The notes under the pieces were generated by a model. That model was not told the DNA's origin. It made no database searches and saw nothing but the letters and a program-made list of their open reading frames with translations. This document shows, piece after piece, positions 3,609-13,858 of a DNA stretch of 64,000 nt. The stretch is from positions 87,337-151,336 of the forward strand of contig JANQPI010000042.1 of assembly GCA_028289585.1 (NCBI GenBank). Direction: 5' to 3'. The translations under genes and the position numbers were made by a program. This DNA comes from Candidatus Zixiibacteriota bacterium (GTDB lineage: Bacteria; Zixibacteria; MSB-5A5; GN15; FEB-12). Position 1 is the first letter of the stretch. Every line of letters starts with the position of its first letter.

Positions 3609-5987
3609 CTACGGCAGCTCTGCTCCCTGGATGTCATCGTTGCACGGTGGCGGTCCATTCAGGAACAGATAGGAAATCAGTACCGTCAGATCCGGCAGCT
3701 CGACGAGATTATTGCAATCGGTGTCGCCGATGAGCAGCGACGGCTGCGGAGCGGCATTGACAAACGGTGAGATGAACAGGAAGCTGATTAACCGCGATAG
3801 ATCGGCGAGGTTGATCGTGCTGTCATAATTGACATCGCCGCGGAATCGCCAGACACGCAGGACGACCGGCACCTCCACCGGACTGTTGCTCGCTCCGGAT
3901 GATGACACAAGCAGCGTATCGAAATACTCGCCAAAGGGGAATCCAGCCCCATTGATATCGGCTCGATGAATCTCGCCGGCTTCTCCCGTCTGATTAACGG
4001 GGAACCACCAATCGACATCCTCGACAATCTCCCAACTCAGACACCCTCCATTCGGATTCTGAACGGTGAAGGCATTTTGTGTGTACGGCCCGCCGCCCTC
4101 CTTGTAAGGGATACCGACCTGACTCGTAGAGAGTTCGATCTCGGGAGCAATCGCCGGGGCAGCGACCGTAAACTCGACGATCACCTCAACCGGGCCACTC
4201 GGGTCTTTCGGCGAATCGAACGTGATCGTGTCGTAGTACACTCCGATCGGTAGTGTCGTTTGGAGTGGTGTGACCAGGAATGTTCGCGGAGCCGTTGCCG
4301 CGGTCGGCGACACGACAAAGTTGCTACTCGAGAATTGAGGAATGAGATCGACAGGATTGTCGCCACCAATGTTCGAGATAGAGAACGAACTCGGGAGATA
4401 CACCGAGTCACCCGACTGGCACTCGAACGTCCGCAGGCGAACCGTGTCCCGAGACGTGATAAGATTCGCCGGAGTCGCGACAAAGCGCAGGACAACCTCA
4501 ACGTCGAGTGGTGAGTTGATCGCTTCAGGGGACGTGATGGTGATCGTATCGCGAACCTCGGTCCCACCGAAGGCGGTCGGAACGTCGAAATCGAGGCGAA
4601 CGCTATCGGGCGCAACACCCGAACCATTGTCAACGTTCACAATCCGAGCGGCGCTCTCTGTAACGGAGTAGGTGAGCGACCCAATGCCGCCATTACGGAC
4701 CTCAAATGACCGCGAAAAGTTCGGCAGCTCAGCAAGGGCGACAACGAAGAACAGCGTCGACGAATCGAGTTCAATCGTCGGCAAGTTGCTGCCCAGATTC
4801 ACAGTTACCGGAATCTTGACCGGATCGTTCGTCGCTCCGGATGCGGTGACTGTAATCGTATCGGTGAACGTACCAAGTCCCAATGAGCTAATGTCAACCA
4901 CGACAGAGACGTCACCGGAGTCGACACCGGCCATCGGCATCAACGTTAACCACGGCTCCATATTGCTGACCGACCAGTTGAGCGTCCCGCCCCCCGCGTT
5001 CGTAATCGTCAATGTCCGTGGCGCCGGATTCGGATCACCAACCAACGCGTTGAACGTAAACGAGGGATCACTCACACCGATTTCCGGCAGCGGTTCAGCC
5101 AACGTGAATTCGACGTAAATATACTGCGGGTTGTTAGCCGCCGACGGAGCGTCCACCTCAATCGAATCGATGTAGAGACCAGGTGTCAATCCGGCCTGCG
5201 ATACCGACACCGAGACGTTACGCGGCGTCGTTCCAAACGACGGTACTTTGGATAGCCAGGGAGCGTTTTCGATAAGCGTGAACGGGAGTTGCTGTGCGGA
5301 CGATGTGATGTCAACCGACTGAGGCAACGGATTCCCTTCGCCGGCCACAGCAGCGAAGAAAAGACTGTCCGGAGCAACCTGGATGTTTGCCGGAGGCACA
5401 AACGCTGTGTCCCGGATGACAAGCGTGCCGGAGAACGCCGGGACGTACGGAATGTTATTCGGCGGTGGCGCAGCGATGATAAACTGCAACTCGGCCGCTG
5501 AGTTGAACGCATTGGTATCGATGACAACCGAGTCCGACAGTCCCCAGGACGTCGCAGTAAAATAGTAGGTCGCCATCAGCTGACGACCCGGATCGGGTTG
5601 GAGATTTGCTGCAAGTGCGACACCGGCAAACTGAAACAGTTGATTGGCGTTGGAGGAGTCGATGTTGTTCGCGAAGAAGACAAACCGCTGCAAATCAAAG
5701 GCAGCTAATGCGGCGGGCGAGAACACCGCCGAATCGAGTACGAAGTTGGGGTTGTCCCACGAGAAGCCACCGCCGGTCAAACCGATCGTGTTGGCATCAT
5801 TGAAGTACGATAACTCCAGAATGAGATCGGTCTGCGCCGTCGCAACATCGGGAATCGCCACCGCCTCGATAATGACGGTATCCGCAGCCCCCAAATCAGC
5901 GGGATCCTGCATGAATTGCGCCGGCACCGTTCCGCCCAGGCCGACGAGAAGAAGTGTGAGAAGAAGGCAAGTTCGCACGCGTGACAT
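3609..5987 (-). CDS. Secreted multidomain protein: signal peptide, cohesin-like domain, tandem BACON-like Ig repeats, C-terminal dockerin-like domain
   Basis: Start MSRVRTCLLL after SD GGGAGG; repeats of type TITNAGGGTLNWSVSN..PWL, DTITVTASGATNDP; C-terminal GDVNYDSTINLADLSRLISFLF / GDTDCNNLVELPDLTVLISYLF. Confidence 0.8.
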   Translation of the reverse strand: MSRVRTCLLLTLLLVGLGGTVPAQFMQDPADLGAADTVIIEAVAIPDVATAQTDLILELSYFNDANTIGLTGGGFSWDNPNFVLDSAVFSPAALAAFDLQRFVFFANNIDSSNANQLFQFAGVALAANLQPDPGRQLMATYYFTATSWGLSDSVVIDTNAFNSAAELQFIIAAPPPNNIPYVPAFSGTLVIRDTAFVPPANIQVAPDSLFFAAVAGEGNPLPQSVDITSSAQQLPFTLIENAPWLSKVPSFGTTPRNVSVSVSQAGLTPGLYIDSIEVDAPSAANNPQYIYVEFTLAEPLPEIGVSDPSFTFNALVGDPNPAPRTLTITNAGGGTLNWSVSNMEPWLTLMPMAGVDSGDVSVVVDISSLGLGTFTDTITVTASGATNDPVKIPVTVNLGSNLPTIELDSSTLFFVVALAELPNFSRSFEVRNGGIGSLTYSVTESAARIVNVDNGSGVAPDSVRLDFDVPTAFGGTEVRDTITITSPEAINSPLDVEVVLRFVATPANLITSRDTVRLRTFECQSGDSVYLPSSFSISNIGGDNPVDLIPQFSSSNFVVSPTAATAPRTFLVTPLQTTLPIGVYYDTITFDSPKDPSGPVEVIVEFTVAAPAIAPEIELSTSQVGIPYKEGGGPYTQNAFTVQNPNGGCLSWEIVEDVDWWFPVNQTGEAGEIHRADINGAGFPFGEYFDTLLVSSSGASNSPVEVPVVLRVWRFRGDVNYDSTINLADLSRLISFLFISPFVNAAPQPSLLIGDTDCNNLVELPDLTVLISYLFLNGPPPCNDDIQGAELP

Positions 5988-6152
5988 CGGAAGGCCTCCC
6001 TGTGCTGTGTCCAATTCGTTACGTTTACCTAACAGTCCCTGGCGACGAGAAGCGACAACTGAACCCGGACGCATGAACGGTATTATCGAGAGCATTGAAA
6101 CGAGAATATGCGTGACCGAGGGACGGCCGTCGCCGACTTGTCCCTATACACA

Positions 6153-6224: not shown

Positions 6225-8720
6225 CTAGCGTCGTGACGAACGGCGACGGCGAGGAGATTTAGCCGCAGGTGAAGGGCGCCCTGTTTTACGGCCCCGTCGA
6301 TTGCGGGTGCGCGCTTTGTCGATCTCCTCGTGAAACAGTTTCTCGAGTGTGAAGCTGGACGGCTGGAAATCAAGCAAACAGATCGCAAACAATTCGTCGA
6401 CCCGTTCAACCAGGTGAAACGTTGTCTCACCAATGACTTCCGCGGGTAACTCCTTCAGATCCTTCTCATTCCCTTTCGGCAACACGATCTCGGTAATCCC
6501 CGCGCGGAACGCCGCCGCGACCTTCTCCTTGATCCCCGCCACCGGAAGAATGCGGCCACGCAACGTCATTTCACCGGTCATCGCGATGTCATTACGAATC
6601 GGCCGTTCGGCCAACACCGATGCGATAACCATGCAGACCGCTACACCGGCCGATGGACCGTCTTTGGGAATCGCCCCCGACGGAAAATGAATGTGGAGAT
6701 CAAACTCCCGAAAATCGTTCGGATCGATGCCCAGCACATCGGCTTTGGAGCGAACGTACGAGTGTGCAGCCTGGATCGATTCGCGCATCACATCGCCAAG
6801 CGATCCGGTCGTAATAATCTGCGCATCGCCGCGCATCTTCAGCCCTTCGATGAACATCAGTTCGCCCCCGGCCCCGGTCCAGGCCAGACCCGCGGCGGTT
6901 CCGATCTCGGGTGCTGTTTCCGCTACTTCAGGCATGTAGAGTGGGGTGCCAAGATAGCCGTCGAGATTCCGCTCAGTCAGTGTCCAGACCCGCTTCCGTC
7001 CCTCTGCCTTTTCGAGCGCAATCTTGCGGCAGATCTTCTCAATCTGCTGCGAGAATGCCAGCAAACCCGCCTCGCGCGTGTAGCCGGTGATAATCAGTGA
7101 CAGCGTACGATCGGAAAGTCGGACCTCTTTCCGCCTCAAACCATGGCGCTCGCAAATCTGCGGCAGGATGTACTTCTTCGCGATTTGGATCTTCTCACGC
7201 TCGATGAAGCTCGGCATTTCCAGGATGTCAAAGCGGGGAATGAACGGCTCCGGAAGATCCTCATAAGATTGCACCGAACAGATGAACAGAGCCTGACTAA
7301 AGTCAAAGGGGACACCAAGATACTCGTCGATGAAGCGATGATTCCGGCGGGCGTCGATGATGCTCAGCAACGCCATGTTCACGGCGGCATCGTTGTCGAG
7401 ATTGAAGACGTCGATATCCTCGACGAGAATGACGGGGTCGACAGTTCGACACTGGCGGAGCCGTCGCAGGAACCGACCGGACTGAGCTCCTAAGAAGGTC
7501 CGGGATACCCCCCGCAATGCCGTGGGATCATTGACACCGCCCACGGAGATACGAACAAACTCACGACCCATGGCACGAGCGACCGCTCGCGCCAACGAAG
7601 CCTTGCCCGTTCCGGGTGCTCCGACCAGACAGAGTGTCGGTCCGCGATCGGTCCCCCCCAGAAGTTGTCGCACCGAAAGTCGCTGAAGCACCTGTTCACG
7701 AACCGTCCTTGGGCCAAAGTAGTCCTGGACAAGGATGCCCTCAGCAACCCCAATATCGAGCCGCTGATTGGAGGTCTTTCCCCACGGCAAGTTGAGCAGG
7801 AGGTCGAGGTAGCTCTTGATAACGCCGAATTCGGATGAACCCGGCGAGAGTTCTTTCAAACGGTCGATCTCGATCCGGGCGCGGTTCACCACCTCCGGCG
7901 GCAGCTCCGTCCGCTCGGTCAGGATCTTAGTCCAGCGGGCAGCCTCTTTCTCCTCCCGAAAGTCCTCTCCCAACTGACGTTTGATCTCGACCAGTTGTTG
8001 GCGAAGCACGTGCCGCCGTTGGTCTTCCTCAATCTGCTTGCGAGCGTTCTCGTTGATCGAGAGAACAGTCGCGATCCGTGACCGCTCCTGCTCAAGACAC
8101 GATATCAGCTGCTCGTAGCGACTTTCCAGCGGGAGCGTTTCGAGAAGTTCCTGCTTGGCGCTCAGTGAGAAGTGGAACGATGCCGCCACCCGATCGGCTA
8201 ACAGGTCGGGATCCTCGCGGTTGTGCTCCAATACCCGGGACAACTCCGGCGAGTAGATCGGATCGAGCTGCGTGATCTCCGCAATCAGACGGAACGTCGT
8301 CGCGATTGCGTCCTGAAGACCGATCGATACCGAAGCTGCCGGCTCGAGTCGAGCCACGGCGGCCTGCAGCACCGGCTCGCCGGTTGCCACCGATTGGATG
8401 GCGACCCGCTCCCGCCCCTCGATGGTCGCCGACACCGAGCGCCCGGGTCCCTCCTGGAGATCGCGAACGATTGCGAGCGTACCAACCTGGTGGAGCGGCT
8501 GGCCGGTCGGGATCTCAATGTCGGCATGGGAATAGGCGCAGATGAACGAGGAATTGGACCGCAGGGCGGAGCGAAGCAGGCGCAGGTTCTCAGGACGGCC
8601 GATCTGCAACGTCAAGGTTGTTCGGGGGAAGAGTACCGCCGTCATGAGCGGCAATAGTGGGTAGACGGTATCCCGGTCGGCCGAGATGATAGGCAATGGA
8701 TGACGGCTACGTATAATCAT
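6225..8720 (-). CDS. lon: LonA-family protease with intact protease domain but degenerate AAA+ motifs
   Basis: LON N-domain (PLLPL...VLFP), GAPGTGKAS, VILVEDID, GLAWT, HIHFPSGAIPKDGPSAG (catalytic Ser), PVAGIKEK (Lys). Confidence 0.9.
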   Translation of the reverse strand: MIIRSRHPLPIISADRDTVYPLLPLMTAVLFPRTTLTLQIGRPENLRLLRSALRSNSSFICAYSHADIEIPTGQPLHQVGTLAIVRDLQEGPGRSVSATIEGRERVAIQSVATGEPVLQAAVARLEPAASVSIGLQDAIATTFRLIAEITQLDPIYSPELSRVLEHNREDPDLLADRVAASFHFSLSAKQELLETLPLESRYEQLISCLEQERSRIATVLSINENARKQIEEDQRRHVLRQQLVEIKRQLGEDFREEKEAARWTKILTERTELPPEVVNRARIEIDRLKELSPGSSEFGVIKSYLDLLLNLPWGKTSNQRLDIGVAEGILVQDYFGPRTVREQVLQRLSVRQLLGGTDRGPTLCLVGAPGTGKASLARAVARAMGREFVRISVGGVNDPTALRGVSRTFLGAQSGRFLRRLRQCRTVDPVILVEDIDVFNLDNDAAVNMALLSIIDARRNHRFIDEYLGVPFDFSQALFICSVQSYEDLPEPFIPRFDILEMPSFIEREKIQIAKKYILPQICERHGLRRKEVRLSDRTLSLIITGYTREAGLLAFSQQIEKICRKIALEKAEGRKRVWTLTERNLDGYLGTPLYMPEVAETAPEIGTAAGLAWTGAGGELMFIEGLKMRGDAQIITTGSLGDVMRESIQAAHSYVRSKADVLGIDPNDFREFDLHIHFPSGAIPKDGPSAGVAVCMVIASVLAERPIRNDIAMTGEMTLRGRILPVAGIKEKVAAAFRAGITEIVLPKGNEKDLKELPAEVIGETTFHLVERVDELFAICLLDFQPSSFTLEKLFHEEIDKARTRNRRGRKTGRPSPAAKSPRRRRSSRR

Positions 8721-8815
8721 AAACAGGAAGCGGTTCGGAGGTTATACCGATCCGCTCCCTGTAGGTATCGGCCGGAAAGCCGTTTTGATCCATGGTCTCC
8801 GCGAGGGAAAGACGA

Positions 8816-11488
8816 TCAATGCACGGCTGAACTCTCTTCGCTGAAGAGCGAGCGAATTTCCCAGTCCGGATGAGCGGCCAGAAGTTGACGATTGAGCCGA
8901 ATCTGATTCGGGTCGACGGCCAGCCGGTAATAGCCAAGGCGATTGTTTTCAACCAAGCCACCGGCGTCAACACCCGAAGGGGCAAGCTCTGATTTCATCC
9001 GATACAGGTAGCGGGCTTGATTGAAGCCGGTCTCCAGGTCGTCCTTGTAAACCCAGCCACTGTCTCCGTGGACTCGTCCGTGGGCGAGTTTGGTCAGATA
9101 TTTGAACGACTTGCCGGTCAACCGTACCGGTTGACCGTTCACCTTGATCAGAAATCGATCCCCCTCAAAACTTCCATCGATATCCAGCGACAGGTGATCA
9201 TCACCGGCGGAGACGATTGCCGTTGCACTTGGATACGCCATAGAATCCTCCTCTACATCACGTTGAATAAGCTTATCGATGTCCTGACATATCTGCTTGT
9301 TGCCGAGAATGGATTCGCGCCGGCTGAGAGACGCCTGACGCCAATCGTCGAGTGACCGAATTCCGGCGTGCCAGAGCGCCCCACAATCGCGTCGACCCAA
9401 GCGGTCCCCGGCCCGACGAACGAGATCCCGATACACCCGCGGCACGCCCATCTGACAAGCGAACGCTTCGTTTTCGAGATCGGACGCAACCTCATCGCTC
9501 AGACGCGCCGCTCGCATCAGCCCTGCCATGCCGCGCAGGCGATGAGCCACATCACGACCGAGCTGCTGAAACGCTCCCAACGACGCCCCGAAGTTCGCTT
9601 CCAAATCGGCAATTGATGTCAGTTGCTGCCACTCGCGGAAGGCGAGAATTGCTTTGATTCGCGCGGCCTCATGGAACGCAAGAGGCACGGTGGCGTGGGT
9701 GGTCGGAAGATGACCGGCAATCTCTGATAGCTTGGCATCGTCCGCGAATTCCTGATAGAGCCGCCGCACCCAGAGATTGGTGCGCCGTTCCAACGATGAC
9801 AACCAACCGGATGGTGCCCGCCAGCTTGGTGTATCGAGTGCCTCGGCCCACCAGGCCTCGGGCGCGGTCGGCCATCCCTGCCGCCAGCGATCAAGCAGAC
9901 GAATCGCCTCATCGACCGCAAAAATTGAATCGACGGTCGCCGCCCCGACATCGGTCGGCTCCCAGCAGACCGTTTCACCGAACGGACGCACCCGAATCAT
10001 GCCGGCGGCAACAAGCTGCCGGGCAGCAGCAGCAATAACCGAGTCGGTCGACTCTCGATCGGGGTCCAAAGCGTGCTGCCACAGACGAGAGGCATCTTCG
10101 GGCGTTCGGCAGCAACCGGTCACGATGAAGGCCAGCAGGCGATCCACCACCGGGCGAGAGGCCCATACCGACGTAATCTCCGGTTGCTGAGTGGGTGAAA
10201 AATACATCTCCCACACCCCCTCAGCATCGAGGCGATTCGCAGCCATCACGATCGCCCGGCCCGGTTGATCGGATAGTCCGAAGCGACCAGCTCGACCAAT
10301 CATGTTATCGAGATCAAGCGCCGGTACCGGAACGGGAACGGGTTCACCATTCCCGGTTCCGGCGTGATACCGTAGCGCTTCAAGGAAGACCGACGTGGCC
10401 GGAAGATTGACACCAAGCGCGAGCGTTGATGTTGCACAGATCAATCGAATGTCACCTCGCCGAAATCCGTGTTCAACGGCTCGACGTTGCGTCACGGAGA
10501 GATCTGCCGTGTGAAACGCAACCCCCGCAGAAAGCACCTGGCGCAATTGTGCCAGTAACCGCGAGGGCTCCTCCCCCGAGAGCGCGTGGAGTGTCGTTTC
10601 CGAAAGGCGGGACGGCAGACGACTGGCCAACGTTTGGGCAAGACGAACCGCCTCGGCCCGTGATTTGACAAAGACGAGCGTCGGCGGTGGCGCAGCAACC
10701 ATCGCATCGACAACCGCCTCGCGGATATCCTCCCACGTATCTCCATCCCCAAACGGTTCTTCGACTTCGGTACCGGTATTGAATGAGCGCAGCCGCAACT
10801 CGCCGGGTGATGCAACACCGTGCCAGAGATCAACCGGCCGCTGGTCGACAGCAACAACTCCGGCATCCAACCAGGTAGCCAGCTGCCGACAGGATCGATC
10901 GGACACGCGGCCAGCGAGAGCAAGAAGGCGCGGCCCCTCGTGACGCGCCCGGAGTGAGATAAGCAGCTGCTCGAGTTCACTCCCGCGCGCGCTGTCGGCC
11001 AGCATCTGCAGTTCATCGATCACCACCAGACCGAGTGACTCGAAGAGGGTGGGGAATCGACGCCACAACCGAATCCCCTTCTCGATAACCGCGACCACGA
11101 TCTCGAAATCTCCCCGTCCGATCTGCCGAACGGCGGAGGTGGCGTGATCGGCGGTCAGTCCCCGACAGCGGACATTCAGGGGCGCAAAGACGGTCTGCCA
11201 GCGCTCGACCAGCTCCTCGACCAAGGATTTGGTGGGAACGACAACGAGCGCCTTGCGGCGATCAAGGAGCGTTCTGGCGATCGCCAGTTCGGCGCAGAAT
11301 GACTTCCCCGACGACGTCGGACCGGAGATCAGGAGATTACCCAGAGATGCCTGTTGACCGGGAAAGCCGATCAATCCATTCTGGATCGCCGCGACCTGAA
11401 GCGGTAGCAACTCCCCCCGCTGCCGCCCCTGCCAGCCCTCAATCAGTACTCGAGGGAGGCCGTATGCAGTTACCTCGGCGAGTTGCAT
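8816..11488 (-). CDS. Ski2/Hel308-like SF2 helicase fused to a C-terminal winged-helix DNA-binding-like domain
   Basis: Q-motif LLPLQ, GPTSSGKS, DELQ, LVFVKSR, ATSTLALGVNLP, MIGRAGR; C-terminal VNGQPVRLTGKSFKYLTKLA...YLYRMKSEL...VENNRLGYYRL resembles an OmpR-type wHTH. Confidence 0.8.
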   Translation of the reverse strand: MQLAEVTAYGLPRVLIEGWQGRQRGELLPLQVAAIQNGLIGFPGQQASLGNLLISGPTSSGKSFCAELAIARTLLDRRKALVVVPTKSLVEELVERWQTVFAPLNVRCRGLTADHATSAVRQIGRGDFEIVVAVIEKGIRLWRRFPTLFESLGLVVIDELQMLADSARGSELEQLLISLRARHEGPRLLALAGRVSDRSCRQLATWLDAGVVAVDQRPVDLWHGVASPGELRLRSFNTGTEVEEPFGDGDTWEDIREAVVDAMVAAPPPTLVFVKSRAEAVRLAQTLASRLPSRLSETTLHALSGEEPSRLLAQLRQVLSAGVAFHTADLSVTQRRAVEHGFRRGDIRLICATSTLALGVNLPATSVFLEALRYHAGTGNGEPVPVPVPALDLDNMIGRAGRFGLSDQPGRAIVMAANRLDAEGVWEMYFSPTQQPEITSVWASRPVVDRLLAFIVTGCCRTPEDASRLWQHALDPDRESTDSVIAAAARQLVAAGMIRVRPFGETVCWEPTDVGAATVDSIFAVDEAIRLLDRWRQGWPTAPEAWWAEALDTPSWRAPSGWLSSLERRTNLWVRRLYQEFADDAKLSEIAGHLPTTHATVPLAFHEAARIKAILAFREWQQLTSIADLEANFGASLGAFQQLGRDVAHRLRGMAGLMRAARLSDEVASDLENEAFACQMGVPRVYRDLVRRAGDRLGRRDCGALWHAGIRSLDDWRQASLSRRESILGNKQICQDIDKLIQRDVEEDSMAYPSATAIVSAGDDHLSLDIDGSFEGDRFLIKVNGQPVRLTGKSFKYLTKLAHGRVHGDSGWVYKDDLETGFNQARYLYRMKSELAPSGVDAGGLVENNRLGYYRLAVDPNQIRLNRQLLAAHPDWEIRSLFSEESSAVH

Positions 11489-11491
11489 ACG

Positions 11492-11674
11492 CTATCCACA
11501 GCAACCATAGCCACAGCCCGGACAGACACTGCAACCGGACTGACGAATCATTCCGGCGCCACAATCAGGACAGGTTTCGGCATTGACAAAGGTCACCGGT
11601 GAGTGCTTGGCCACCCCCCAATCGAGGTCGTCACGAGTCTCAACGGCAGGTTTGATGGCGATCTGGTCTTCCAT
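11492..11674 (-). CDS. Small zinc-ribbon protein (60 aa)
   Basis: MEDQ... after SD GGGAGAG; CPDCG-x7-CSVCPGCGYGCCG; ends 3 nt before the helicase ATG. Confidence 0.7.
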   Translation of the reverse strand: MEDQIAIKPAVETRDDLDWGVAKHSPVTFVNAETCPDCGAGMIRQSGCSVCPGCGYGCCG

Positions 11675-11721
11675 GTTGGCTCTCCCAGTCTGCGATAGGC
11701 TGACTATCAGTGGTGCCCGGA

Positions 11722-11750
11722 TGTATACTGCACATTTGAGCATCTGTCAA
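11722..11750 (-). promoter_or_regulatory. Sigma70 promoter of the Zn-ribbon/helicase cassette
   Basis: TTGACA-17 nt-TATACA. Confidence 0.7.
11729..11742. promoter_or_regulatory. Putative LexA operator (TGCTC-AAAT-GTGCA) in the promoter spacer
   Basis: Imperfect palindrome between -35 and -10; matches the TGCNC-N4-GTGCA box known for Fibrobacter succinogenes LexA. Confidence 0.6.
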
Positions 11751-11815
11751 GCCGAAGGAGGCTTTTTTTATCGATTCTGAAGAGTGCTCGGCTGTAGTCG
11801 GTGGGAATTGAGCGT

Positions 11816-11845: not shown

Positions 11846-12007
11846 TTGTCTGTGGTTGGCTTACCTCACCTCACGCTGCCACCCACCAGTAAGATTCAGT
11901 TTACCCGAAACTGCCTGACTCCATGGACGTTTATAGATGTATGCCGGTGGGCGTAGCGCCCCCCGCCTCACTGTGTGACAGTCCGCCGAACATTTGAAGG
12001 AGCCGAA

Positions 12008-13858
12008 ATGACTCGGAAGTCGATCTCTTGCCATCTGATTGTCGCCGCGACGATTTTAGGACTCGCCATGGTCGCCGGGCCCGTAGGCGCCATTCCGCCA
12101 CCGCATCTCGTTGATTCGGCTCAGGCAGCGATGGAGGCGGCCGCGAACGGGCGAACGACTCCCACGACGCAGTCTGCCGCACAGGCGAGTGAGGCCGGAG
12201 ATTATCAGTTCTGTCTGCTCGATGAGGTGCAATTCACCAACTTTGGCGGAAGCGACATCTGGGGCTGGCAGCATCCGGATGGCCGAGAATACGCCTTCAT
12301 GGGGGTTTTTGAAGGGATCGCGGTCTACAACGTCACCGATCAGGTCCTTGTCGAGACGGTCATCGGTCCGCAGAACAACTGTGGCGGATCGTTCTGGCGC
12401 GATTTTAAGAACTACCAGAATTACCTCTACGCAGTCACCGAATGCACGGGTACCAATCAGGGGATTATCATTCTCGATCTGTCGACCCTGCCGAACTCGG
12501 TGACGTTTGTTGATCGCTTCGCCACCAGCTTCAATAACAACACCCACCACAATGTCTCAATCGATACCGTTCAGGGGTACCTGTACGCGGTCAACCCGCC
12601 CGACAACGGCGTCCGGGTGTGGAGCCTGGCGGATCCGGAAAACCCGCAGTTGATCGGTGACATCTTTACTGGTGATTGTCATGACATGTTCGCTCACAAC
12701 GACACTTTGTACGTTGCTGAGGGGAACAATAGTAGCTGGTCGATCTGGGATGTTTCCGACAAGCTGAATCCGGTTGAAATCGTCAATGTTATTATTCCCA
12801 ATTCAGGCTACGTTCACAACGTATGGCCAACTGCCGATCGCCGCTATGCGGGCACGACGGAGGAGACCGTTGGCAAGACGGTTAAAATCTGGGACATTCA
12901 GGACCTTCAAAACATCCAGCTGGTGGGCGAATATCCGGCGGTGAACAGCCTCGCCCACAACATTCATTTTGAAAATGGTCGCGGTTACATCTCATCGTAC
13001 AGCGCCGGCGTCGTGATTCTTGATATCTCCGACCCCAACAATCCCGTCGAGTCCGACCGCTTCGATACGTTTACCGCAAATGACAATCCGGCGTTCGATG
13101 GGTGCTGGGGGATCTACCCACACACAGCAACAGGCAAGATTTACGCATCGAATGACGACGGACGGCTCTTCATTTTCCAGGAAGTGCTGATCGCCGACGG
13201 TGATACGCTCAGAGCCGGATTCGAAACGGTCGAACCAGCCTCGCTCGTCTCGATCGACATCAACCTGACCAATGCCAATTCCGTAAACGAGATCGTTCTC
13301 CCCATCGACTGGAACGGGCCGTTCAATCTGCTGTTTGATTCGGTTTCCGTAGCTGGAACGCGGGCCGATGGATTCACACTGGCGCTTATCGCCGATGGTC
13401 GCGCGAGTGGCCGCGTTGTGTACGATCTCCTCGGAAACGGCCTCGAAATTCCGCCGGGTGATGGACCGATTGCGCGGGCCCACTTCCGCTTCCCCGGTGG
13501 AACACCGGCCGGTGACACGAATGTCGTACGCGTCGACGCAGCTCTCCTGCAGACGGCGAAGATTGCGAACGACTGTTTCTCGGTGAATCTCCCGAGCGTG
13601 GCGGGGGCGTTCGTTCTCCCCCCCGATCCTGCAACCTGCTGTGTTGGAACGACCGGGAATGTCGATTTCGATGGCGGCGATACGGTTGGGCTCCCCGACC
13701 TCTCGGCACTGATCGACCATCTCTTCATCTCGTTCGCACCGCTGTCATGTCCCGACGAGGGTGATATTAATGCCGATGGCGACGTTGGTCTTCCCGATCT
13801 CTCGGCGCTGATCGACAACCTCTTCATCACCTTCACGCCGTTGCCCAACTGTCCGTAG
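12008..13858 (+). CDS. Secreted choice-of-anchor B / LVIVD-repeat protein with cohesin-like and C-terminal dockerin-like domains
   Basis: SD GAAGGAG, signal peptide; SDIWGW..DGREYA, WRDFKNY, HN repeats, GCWGIYP; C-terminal CCVGTTGNVD...LPDLSALIDHLF / GDINADGDVGLPDLSALIDNLF...CP. Confidence 0.85.
   Translation: MTRKSISCHLIVAATILGLAMVAGPVGAIPPPHLVDSAQAAMEAAANGRTTPTTQSAAQASEAGDYQFCLLDEVQFTNFGGSDIWGWQHPDGREYAFMGVFEGIAVYNVTDQVLVETVIGPQNNCGGSFWRDFKNYQNYLYAVTECTGTNQGIIILDLSTLPNSVTFVDRFATSFNNNTHHNVSIDTVQGYLYAVNPPDNGVRVWSLADPENPQLIGDIFTGDCHDMFAHNDTLYVAEGNNSSWSIWDVSDKLNPVEIVNVIIPNSGYVHNVWPTADRRYAGTTEETVGKTVKIWDIQDLQNIQLVGEYPAVNSLAHNIHFENGRGYISSYSAGVVILDISDPNNPVESDRFDTFTANDNPAFDGCWGIYPHTATGKIYASNDDGRLFIFQEVLIADGDTLRAGFETVEPASLVSIDINLTNANSVNEIVLPIDWNGPFNLLFDSVSVAGTRADGFTLALIADGRASGRVVYDLLGNGLEIPPGDGPIARAHFRFPGGTPAGDTNVVRVDAALLQTAKIANDCFSVNLPSVAGAFVLPPDPATCCVGTTGNVDFDGGDTVGLPDLSALIDHLFISFAPLSCPDEGDINADGDVGLPDLSALIDNLFITFTPLPNCP

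Follow-up and report, generated by a model that had tools for sequence, protein, structure and literature searches.

The 64,000-nucleotide (nt) stretch of contig JANQPI010000042.1 analysed here (assembly GCA_028289585.1; hereafter the window) comes from a Zixibacteria genome of 3.15 Mb and 99.6% completeness, and probably contains a LexA-repressed, SOS-type operon of two genes, which encode a small zinc-finger protein (ZnR) and a Hel308-type helicase fused to a C-terminal winged helix. From the sequence, the predicted folds, the conservation of the genes and the distribution of the operator we infer the binding of LexA, the induction of the operon, the enzymatic activity of the helicase and the functions of its winged helix and of ZnR. 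As long as the DNA is intact, a LexA dimer seated on the 14-bp palindrome between the -35 and -10 elements would block RNA polymerase, and the cleavage of LexA after DNA damage would allow the operon to be transcribed. By analogy with archaeal Hel308, the helicase would most likely translocate along DNA in the 3'-to-5' direction and anneal strands at stalled forks and in recombination intermediates, while its winged helix, the fold of which is taken from a model, might tether or target it to duplex DNA. ZnR might be an accessory or redox-sensitive partner of the helicase. The product of the next gene downstream, a Lon-type protein (Lon3), would be a separately evolving pseudo-ATPase protease, the gene of which has been kept adjacent in a part of the phylum.

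By sequence reading, all features of the operon, as well as Lon3, lie on the minus strand of the window:

11722..11750, minus strand: sigma-70-type promoter, with -35 TTGACA at 11750-11745, a 17-nt spacer and -10 TATACA at 11727-11722
11729..11742, minus strand: putative LexA operator TGCTCAAATGTGCA, which fills the promoter spacer; the lineage consensus is TGCAC-N4-GTGCA
11492..11674, minus strand: ZnR, zinc-finger open reading frame (ORF) of 60 amino acids (aa), with ATG at 11674 and a stop codon ending at 11492
8816..11488, minus strand: Hel308-type helicase ORF of 890 aa, with ATG at 11488, 3 nt past the ZnR stop codon
9239..11488, minus strand: helicase residues 1-750, predicted five-domain core of Hel308 type (PRK02362, 2p6r, Foldseek, invariant motifs)
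8834..9187, minus strand: helicase residues 768-885, predicted winged helix of OmpR/PhoB type (fold match of the AlphaFold2 model by Foldseek)

This layout agrees with the initial annotation, made from the sequence alone, which had described a TTGACA-17-TATACA promoter with TGCTCAAATGTGCA in its spacer, a gene of a 60-aa Cys-rich Zn-ribbon protein, a helicase gene 3 nt later and a lon gene 95 nt after that. A consensus promoter scan of the window did not list the promoter of the helicase operon, because TATACA lacks the T required at position 6; in relatives, the -10 element reads TATNNT.

Operator conservation and the link to lexA

The significance of the operator rests on its conservation, because the motif alone occurs at about the chance level: the exact TGCNC-N4-GTGCA was found eight times in the genome, which by a rough reckoning is the number expected at random when ten bases are fixed and both strands are counted, and the argument from a single motif was therefore dropped. 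The arrangement TTGACA-NN-[T/G]GCAC-N4-GTGCA-GTAT is present upstream of the helicase gene at all 20 loci of the family, i.e. the locus in the window and those of 19 other genera. The motif is free of mismatches at 14 of these loci, five carry GGCAC as the left arm, and one reads TGAAC..GTTCA. This layout has been kept although the helicase proteins themselves are only about 40% identical. A wider sample comprised 65 Zixibacteria genomes from 18 families, and a strict pattern was applied to it (TTGAC with at most one mismatch, N3, and TGNNC-N4-GNNCA, within 900 nt upstream of the helicase start). Fifty-three genomes matched this pattern, and five more carried GGCAC variants.

The same architecture is found in front of lexA. 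The lexA gene of the source genome, identified by TIGR00498 (196.6 bits versus a cut-off of 110.95), has the promoter TTGACAcc-TGCCCGTATGTACA-GTAG, which is built in the same way as the helicase promoter, and lexA promoters of relatives share the architecture in 25 of 30 cases judged by eye; with the composite pattern described below, the figure is 30 of 31. Some of the boxes read TGAAC-N4-GTTCA and contain GAAC-N4-GTTC, the LexA box of Gram-positive bacteria. TGCNC-N4-GTGCA is the LexA box of Fibrobacter succinogenes, a motif string that was not found in the literature search. LexA-regulon membership of the helicase operon is thus indicated by an operator of the lineage in its promoter, kept across relatives, and by the presence of the same motif at the promoter of lexA itself.

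The specificity of the arrangement was assessed in 41 whole genomes of the window's order with the composite pattern TTGACNNNTGNNCNNNNGNNCAGTA, the same pattern read backwards serving as a control. There were 62 matches versus one for the control, and a comparison of coordinates by hand placed 35 of them just upstream of the helicase locus, 26 just upstream of lexA and one elsewhere. The lone match outside these two loci (G018:C13:30436, in the region G018:C13:28936-31960) precedes two unassigned ORFs of 208 and 137 aa.

A position weight matrix (PWM) was also built from the helicase and lexA sites. In a scan of the source genome, the site in the window ranked first with 21.6 bits, partly by construction, since it had been included in the matrix, and the lexA site scored 13.4-14.9 bits; real LexA sites range from 13 to 24 bits. 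The site ranking second in this genome scored 19.8 bits and has a box of 11.3 bits 30 nt away (G000:C21:362017-363520). It lies on another contig and precedes a 481-aa HD-domain ORF that weakly resembles dGTP triphosphohydrolase. This gene was rejected as a conserved member of the regulon, being present in five of 31 genomes and preceded by boxes in the source genome only; no box was found before its homologues in four relatives. The other sites of at least 13 bits in the source genome were mostly located inside long ORFs or before unrelated genes, among them leuS, a histidine kinase gene and a glycosyltransferase-like ORF, and were treated as chance matches.

A homologue search with one genome per species also revealed the helicase in Hydrogenedentota. 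The homologue P0020 has the same architecture, with DEAD, Helicase_C, archaeal helicase domain 4 and Trans_reg_C domains, the last of them above its cut-off (31.7 versus 26.2 bits, residues 772-848). The operator at these loci is a different one: TTGACA-N-CTG-N10-CAG-TAT occupies the promoter spacer at all seven loci for which upstream sequence was at hand, usually as CTGAA-N6-TTCAG. CTG-N10-CAG is the LexA box of the Escherichia coli type. CTGAA-N6-TTCAG also stands just after the -10 element of lexA, exactly in three of four Hydrogenedentota genomes and with one mismatch in the fourth. In these four genomes (5.2-6.8 Mb each), the composite pattern gave five matches versus none for the control, of which four were at the helicase gene and one, reading CTGAT-N6-TTCAG, was before a RecA-fold ORF followed by a Y-family-polymerase-like ORF (L199, G166:C200:8616-11640). 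Judging from their sequences, these two ORFs are probably an imuA-imuB mutagenesis cassette, with a weak match to ImuA (E 2.2e-4) and a match to Y-family polymerase (E 8.6e-8). Such cassettes are classic LexA targets. CTGAA-N6-TTCAG is accordingly a predicted LexA box for Hydrogenedentota, and the helicase gene appears to have stayed in the regulon while its operator changed together with that of lexA. Of the arguments for the palindrome as a LexA site, we consider this joint change the strongest. Neither the zinc-finger gene nor a lon gene was found at the Hydrogenedentota helicase loci.

The initial annotation had proposed that the Zn-ribbon and helicase genes are damage-inducible, under an operator situated within the promoter spacer. 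This prediction is strongly supported, at the level of sequence comparison, by conservation across the phylum, by the lexA promoters, by the genome-wide specificity and by the second phylum.

One further locus stands apart. L182, which is labelled as an uncultured member of Ignavibacteria, encodes a helicase 30% identical to that of the window over residues 1-884, behind the promoter TTGACAtc-TGCACAAATGTGCA-GTAC of the exact Zixibacteria type, and no such box was found in the 220 nt upstream of lexA in this genome. Either the bin is mislabelled or the system extends to another lineage of the Fibrobacteres-Chlorobi-Bacteroidetes (FCB) group.

The helicase and the zinc-finger protein

The helicase is nearly ubiquitous in the phylum: it was detected in 147 of 151 genomes sampled (E <= 1e-20), and in one survey all 60 relatives gave a match, which was only weak and generic in G036 (89% complete). 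The archaeal Hel308-type model PRK02362 of NCBIfam matches residues 4-747 (E 1e-66), and the closest sequence in the PDB is Archaeoglobus fulgidus Hel308 (2p6r, E 8.8e-40). Motifs I, II and VI are intact (PTSSGKSF, VVIDELQ and GRAGRFG), and an alignment of 43 sequences shows no variation at G61, K62, D158, E159 and G398-R399-A400-G401-R402.

The full-length AlphaFold2 (AF2) model, with a predicted local distance difference test score (pLDDT) of 86.6, contains the five domains expected of such enzymes, i.e. RecA1, RecA2, winged helix, ratchet and helix-hairpin-helix. In Foldseek, the Hel308 structures 9b15, 2va8, 2zj8 and 2p6r, targets of 680-700 residues that were covered whole, matched it with template modelling (TM) scores, normalised by the target, of 0.83-0.90 and E of about 1e-38; these were followed by the helicase domain of Pol theta (TM 0.72-0.78 with the same normalisation, E of about 1e-36) and then by Brr2. 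The Ski2/Hel308-like helicase of the initial annotation is therefore confirmed by PRK02362, 2p6r and the AF2/Foldseek comparison; on sequence grounds, the protein is a divergent relative of Hel308 and not an equivalog.

A low-confidence, disordered linker (residues 750-764) precedes a domain of 118 residues (768-885), which is the best-conserved part of the protein, being 55-66% identical among Zixibacteria versus about 40% for the whole protein. The AF2 model of a 128-aa segment has a pLDDT of 90.2 and the strand and helix order E-E-E-H-H-H-E-E, in agreement with the OmpR/PhoB fold of an N-terminal beta-sheet, a three-helix bundle with the recognition helix and a C-terminal hairpin wing, and its top Foldseek matches in the PDB were all effector domains of the OmpR/PhoB type (ArlR, GlnR, EmbR, BaeR and PhoB), with target-normalised TM scores of 0.5-0.65, E of about 1e-2 and probabilities of 0.95-1.0. 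A comparison by hhalign of the profile of the Zixibacteria C-terminal domain with P0020 was weak (E 0.026, probability 1.9%) and was not used. The C-terminal winged helix, which the initial annotation had also recognised, is thus confirmed by predicted fold only, and at that level the domain belongs to the OmpR/PhoB winged-helix class.

Family f2 has longer helicases, the open frames of which span 839-1073 aa (L085-L088), and tblastn alignments of about 1000 columns versus about 880 query residues imply, on sequence grounds, an internal insertion. The box is situated 115-226 nt from the helicase start in genomes of this family.

ZnR has seven Cys among its last 26 residues, and C35, C38, C48, C51, C54, G55 and C59 are invariant in 43 ZnR sequences. 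Only the last ~35 residues are conserved, the N-terminal part varying in length and sequence, and some deep-branching forms contain a second ribbon. NCBIfam model NF006417 (class II ribonucleotide reductase, NrdJ) gave a local match at positions 724-759 of its 759 (E 5.1e-7). The spacing of the six invariant Cys in ZnR, C-x2-C-x9-C-x2-C-x2-C-x4-C, differs by one residue, in the last interval, from that of the cysteine-rich domain (CRD) of S. nassauensis NrdJ (C920/923/933/936/939/945, ending C-x5-C), and according to the accessible text of Loderer et al. (PMC5704485) the Cys array of NrdJ binds zinc and relays electrons. ZnR may thus be regarded, by its sequence, as a six-Cys zinc finger derived from the tail of a class II ribonucleotide reductase. 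ZnR does not amount to a full CRD of 150-220 aa on or beside NrdJ, since it has 60 aa, only ~35 of them alike, and nrdJ is located on another contig.

Within the order, 43 of 47 genomes have a ZnR ORF between the box and the helicase gene, as do 10 of 18 genomes from outside the order; in genomes without ZnR, 46-226 nt separate the box from the start of the helicase gene. What ZnR does is the weakest step of the proposed mechanism. It may well assist the helicase as an accessory or redox-sensitive partner, a role that is ranked first because of the tight operon link only. Another explanation might be that ZnR acts on NrdJ, delivering electrons to it or modulating it, and so adjusts the supply of deoxynucleoside triphosphates (dNTPs) during repair. 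The shared six-Cys array would fit such a role, as would the transfer of electrons between subunits and the separately encoded CRD of the NrdJa+b subclass described in the accessible part of PMC5704485. It would also fit that the NrdJ of the source genome (G000:C23:579425-581164; 588 aa, ending in ECIDC) has no Cys-rich tail and that the only tail-like sequence in this genome is the ZnR gene. Against it, ZnR covers only ~35 aa of a domain of 150-220 aa, and the two distributions are not complementary: the Cys-rich tail is kept in the NrdJ of nine of ten other Zixibacteria tested, namely in all five with ZnR and in four of the five without it. We regard an action on NrdJ as improbable, and on the same counts the idea of ZnR as a substitute for a missing NrdJ tail was rejected.

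Lon3 and the weighing of alternative explanations

Two further features complete this part of the window:

8721..8815, minus strand: gap of 95 nt between the helicase gene and Lon3, without a detected terminator, sigma-70-like site or LexA box
6225..8720, minus strand: Lon3, LonA-type paralog of 831 aa (TIGR00763), with N-domain, AAA+ and S16 protease domains

Lon3 has the Pfam domains LON_substr_bdg, AAA, Lon_lid and Lon_C and passes TIGR00763 (657.2 bits versus a cut-off of 608.05); the genome holds two better Lons (941 and 917 bits) with canonical motifs. Compared with these two paralogs, Walker A has changed from GKT to GKA and Walker B from DE to ED, the sensor-1 Asn is lost and the sensor-2 Arg is replaced by Leu, which bears out the broken ATPase motifs noticed in the initial annotation. 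Lon3 and 33 of its 36 orthologues are degenerate, with GKA in Walker A, ED or EN in Walker B, no Asn at sensor 1 and Leu or another residue at sensor 2, and the three remaining orthologues, from families f8 and f18, keep GK[TS] and have DD in Walker B. The Ser of PKDGPSAG and the Lys of xEK, forming the Ser-Lys dyad, are kept in all 37 sequences. The domain layout, the curated cut-off and the dyad are thus those of LonA, while functional Walker A and B, sensor-1 and sensor-2 motifs are missing.

The initial annotation had combined the three genes in one cassette. In a cassette of this kind, a co-transcribed Lon would work with the helicase and might, for example, remove it or ZnR after repair. 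In favour of such a unit, the gap in the window is only 95 nt long, with both genes on the same strand and neither a terminator nor a promoter detected, and Lon3 follows the helicase gene in 44 of the 46 genomes of the order that could be assessed, as well as in families f5, f8 and f18. The other two showed no Lon3 in the 3.5-4.8 kb of sequence retrieved, and one more genome was left out of the count, since its contig ends too early. The adjacency is, however, limited to certain lineages: outside the order Lon3 adjoins the helicase gene in only five of 18 genomes from other families, some families having Lon3-like paralogs at other places, and it was adjacent in none of three Hydrogenedentota loci with ~3 kb of downstream flank. 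Among the 44 genomes, 38 have a gap of at most 340 nt and six have an insert of 1.0-3.2 kb, an insert is also present in one genome outside the order, and the two inserts examined contain ORFs on the opposite strand. No short gap between the two genes scores above 5.3 bits by the LexA PWM, well under the range of real sites, and the best score in the gap of the window is -3.5 bits. Sigma-70-like sites were found in nine of 42 gaps on the sense strand versus none of 42 on the antisense strand; hairpin-plus-T terminators (12 of 42 sense, 10 of 42 antisense) did not differ from this control. The gene of a BACON-domain protein after Lon3 and, often, the gene of an LVIVD-repeat protein before the promoter are also syntenic across much of the order, which suggests that the adjacency of Lon3 is plain conserved gene order. 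A single cassette of three genes therefore appears unlikely, and Lon3 is probably a neighbour outside the LexA unit, although it may be transcribed by read-through from the helicase gene in the source genome. The synteny expected of the cassette was borne out for the helicase with its operator, which are widespread together, and in part for ZnR, which is frequent and not universal, and for the Lon neighbour it was confined to certain lineages. Helicase homologues without the Zn-ribbon and Lon genes do occur, in a part of the phylum and in Hydrogenedentota, and the operator is kept there.

The palindrome might also be bound by another repressor, possibly by the winged helix of the helicase itself in a form of autoregulation, which would then control lexA as well. 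The helicase does have a conserved domain of a DNA-binding type. However, a 14-bp inverted repeat over a promoter, common to lexA, is the classic signature of LexA autoregulation, the variant boxes contain the Gram-positive LexA motif, and in Hydrogenedentota the boxes of the helicase gene and lexA both switch to CTG-N10-CAG, which is also present before the imuA/imuB-like pair. OmpR-type domains, moreover, usually bind direct repeats. Control by a repressor other than LexA is thus very improbable. Still less likely is an anti-phage defence module of Hachiman or BREX type, with a HamB-like helicase and a BrxL-like Lon. Among the PADLOC models, those of HamB hit the core of the helicase (E as low as 4e-29) and one of BrxL hits the protease domain of Lon (E 5.8e-15), but these matches cover only generic helicase and protease cores, and in the PDB Hel308 is far closer than HamB (E 8.8e-40 versus 1.1e-12). 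The Hachiman partner HamA (DUF1837) does not stand beside the helicase gene, the neighbours of which encode ZnR, Lon, LVIVD-repeat and BACON-domain proteins, and a search for HamA (PF08878) found nothing in the genome, complete as it is, although the control genomes were silent too. As to BREX, TIGR02653 gave 45 bits versus 628, and no BREX component was found among the neighbours examined. The presence of the helicase in almost all genomes of the phylum, at a fixed locus where this was examined, is also unlike a mobile defence island. The view of the initial annotation that the gene content is neither that of BREX nor that of Hachiman is thus borne out by the neighbouring genes and by the proximity to Hel308.

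Several observations weigh against a LexA-repressed operon of ZnR and a Hel308-type helicase with a winged helix, which is nevertheless the reading preferred here. In seven of the 65 genomes, no recognisable box was found within 900 nt upstream of the helicase gene. The recA gene of the source genome has no box, either by PWM or by inspection of its promoter, and genome G045 keeps the helicase box, yet lexA was not found in its 97%-complete assembly. The pattern and the PWM were derived from the same helicase and lexA sites that were then counted, so the counts speak for specificity and not for an independent discovery, and the genomes compared are related to each other and hence not independent. 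ZnR was not found in four f2 genomes, in eight of 18 deeper genomes and in Hydrogenedentota, and is therefore, judging from its distribution, dispensable for the helicase. In the source genome, nothing detectable separates the helicase gene from Lon3. The helicase itself falls far short of the equivalog cut-offs of PRK02362 (225.8 versus 887 bits) and NF040935 (161.2 versus 1200). As for the winged helix, Trans_reg_C (PF00486) of Pfam matched none of 34 Zixibacteria C-terminal domains at E <= 1, and a sequence-profile search of the PDB with this domain gave nothing significant; the best matches by sequence profile were ArlR (E 0.3) and an unrelated protease (E 0.04).

Comparison with known systems and minor observations

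The nearest known enzymes are the archaeal Hel308/Hjm helicases (A. fulgidus 2p6r, S. solfataricus 2va8, P. furiosus 2zj8), which share the Ski2-like motor of superfamily 2 (SF2) and the five-domain layout. In contrast to them, the helicase of the window is bacterial, has DELQ in motif II and an extra C-terminal winged helix, is predicted to be controlled by a LexA box and in many genomes has a zinc-finger gene just before its own. The same fold class includes human HELQ and the helicase-like domain of Pol theta; unlike these, the window protein has neither a polymerase nor the N-terminal extension of HELQ, and it differs from them also in its domain of life and its regulation. In a 2026 review (PMC13623763), Hel308/HELQ is described as conserved from archaea to humans, and bacterial members are not treated in the accessible part of this source.

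Mycobacterial Lhr is likewise a bacterial, Ski2-like SF2 helicase, for which 3'-to-5' activity and induction by DNA damage are described in the accessible part of PMC5758891, and similar properties may be predicted here. It belongs to a different family, and the NCBIfam model of ligase-associated DEXH helicases matched the window protein with E 1.2e-14 only. The C-terminal domains of Lhr are other ones, and we know of no LexA box in the spacer of its promoter.

LexA operators elsewhere are similar inverted repeats of 14-16 bp over the promoter, also found at lexA. Compared with other LexA regulons, the predicted one is very small, and at its head stands a Hel308-type helicase instead of recA or uvrA. 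ZnR shares with the NrdJ CRD and NrdJb a C-terminal six-Cys array of nearly the same spacing, with a precedent for a CRD in a separate gene in the accessible text of PMC5704485, and differs from them in comprising only ~35 aa, in the location of its gene away from nrdJ and within a putatively LexA-controlled helicase operon, and in its variable N-terminus. Lon3 shares the LON N-domain, AAA+, lid and S16 protease domains with LonA and differs from it in the degenerate ATPase motifs, while LonC, which is ATP-independent, lacks the LonA N-domain that Lon3 keeps.

The literature search returned no paper linking Hel308 with LexA or an SOS regulon in bacteria. It likewise returned no description of LexA in Zixibacteria, only one unrelated survey, and a paper on LexA of Bacteroidetes mentions neither Hel308 nor Zixibacteria. 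By sequence evidence, the helicase gene is the best-conserved predicted LexA target after lexA itself. Hel308/HELQ helicases have been studied as enzymes of repair and recombination in archaea and eukaryotes; in the present bacterial lineage, a Hel308-type enzyme is encoded by a near-universal core gene and is equipped with a new domain of DNA-binding type. The two phyla with their different operators would provide a clean case of a regulon member kept through operator turnover, and the system might offer a tractable bacterial setting for the role of Hel308 after DNA damage. Predicted LexA motifs were also obtained for two uncultured phyla, and two side puzzles arose: the zinc-finger tail of NrdJ exists as a separate small protein, and a paralog of LonA retains its protease site although its ATPase motifs are lost.

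A more far-reaching possibility, which we consider rather unlikely, is that Zixibacteria and, in parallel, Hydrogenedentota have a minimal SOS response, the sole conserved effector of which is the Hel308-type helicase and not recA, uvrA or a translesion cassette. In such a response, the winged helix would direct the helicase to specific sites in duplex DNA or to forks with damage, ZnR, as a captured part of ribonucleotide reductase, would couple the helicase or the dNTP supply to the redox state of the cell, and Lon3 would serve as a dedicated ATP-independent protease for resetting the system. The whole would represent a bacterial repair pathway centred on an enzyme regarded as archaeal and eukaryotic.

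The operon and Lon3 are flanked by the following features:

3609-6095, minus strand: gene of a BACON-domain protein (Pfam BACON_2, E 1.7e-9)
11975-13858, plus strand: gene of an LVIVD-repeat protein (E 1.8e-5)
11749-11764, plus strand: GC-rich hairpin followed by a T run, abutting the -35 element; read on the minus strand, an A tract and a hairpin

The two flanking proteins have similar Cys-containing tails at their C-terminal ends. Relatives have A or T tracts at the position of the hairpin, and the hairpin and T run may be a tract similar to an UP element, or a terminator of antisense or upstream transcription.

Many relatives have the short sequence (G)CCGATA(A) about 12-16 nt past the -10 element of the ZnR promoter, and it is found again 15-25 nt before the Lon3 start codon, where in the gaps of family f1 it comes after the conserved CTCTTGAAA. 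CCGATA was rejected as a general ribosome-binding signal or signal of the 5' untranslated region, as no clear enrichment was found upstream of 1570 long ORFs of the source genome. (G)CCGATA(A) could be a shared regulatory site or the -10 element of another promoter.

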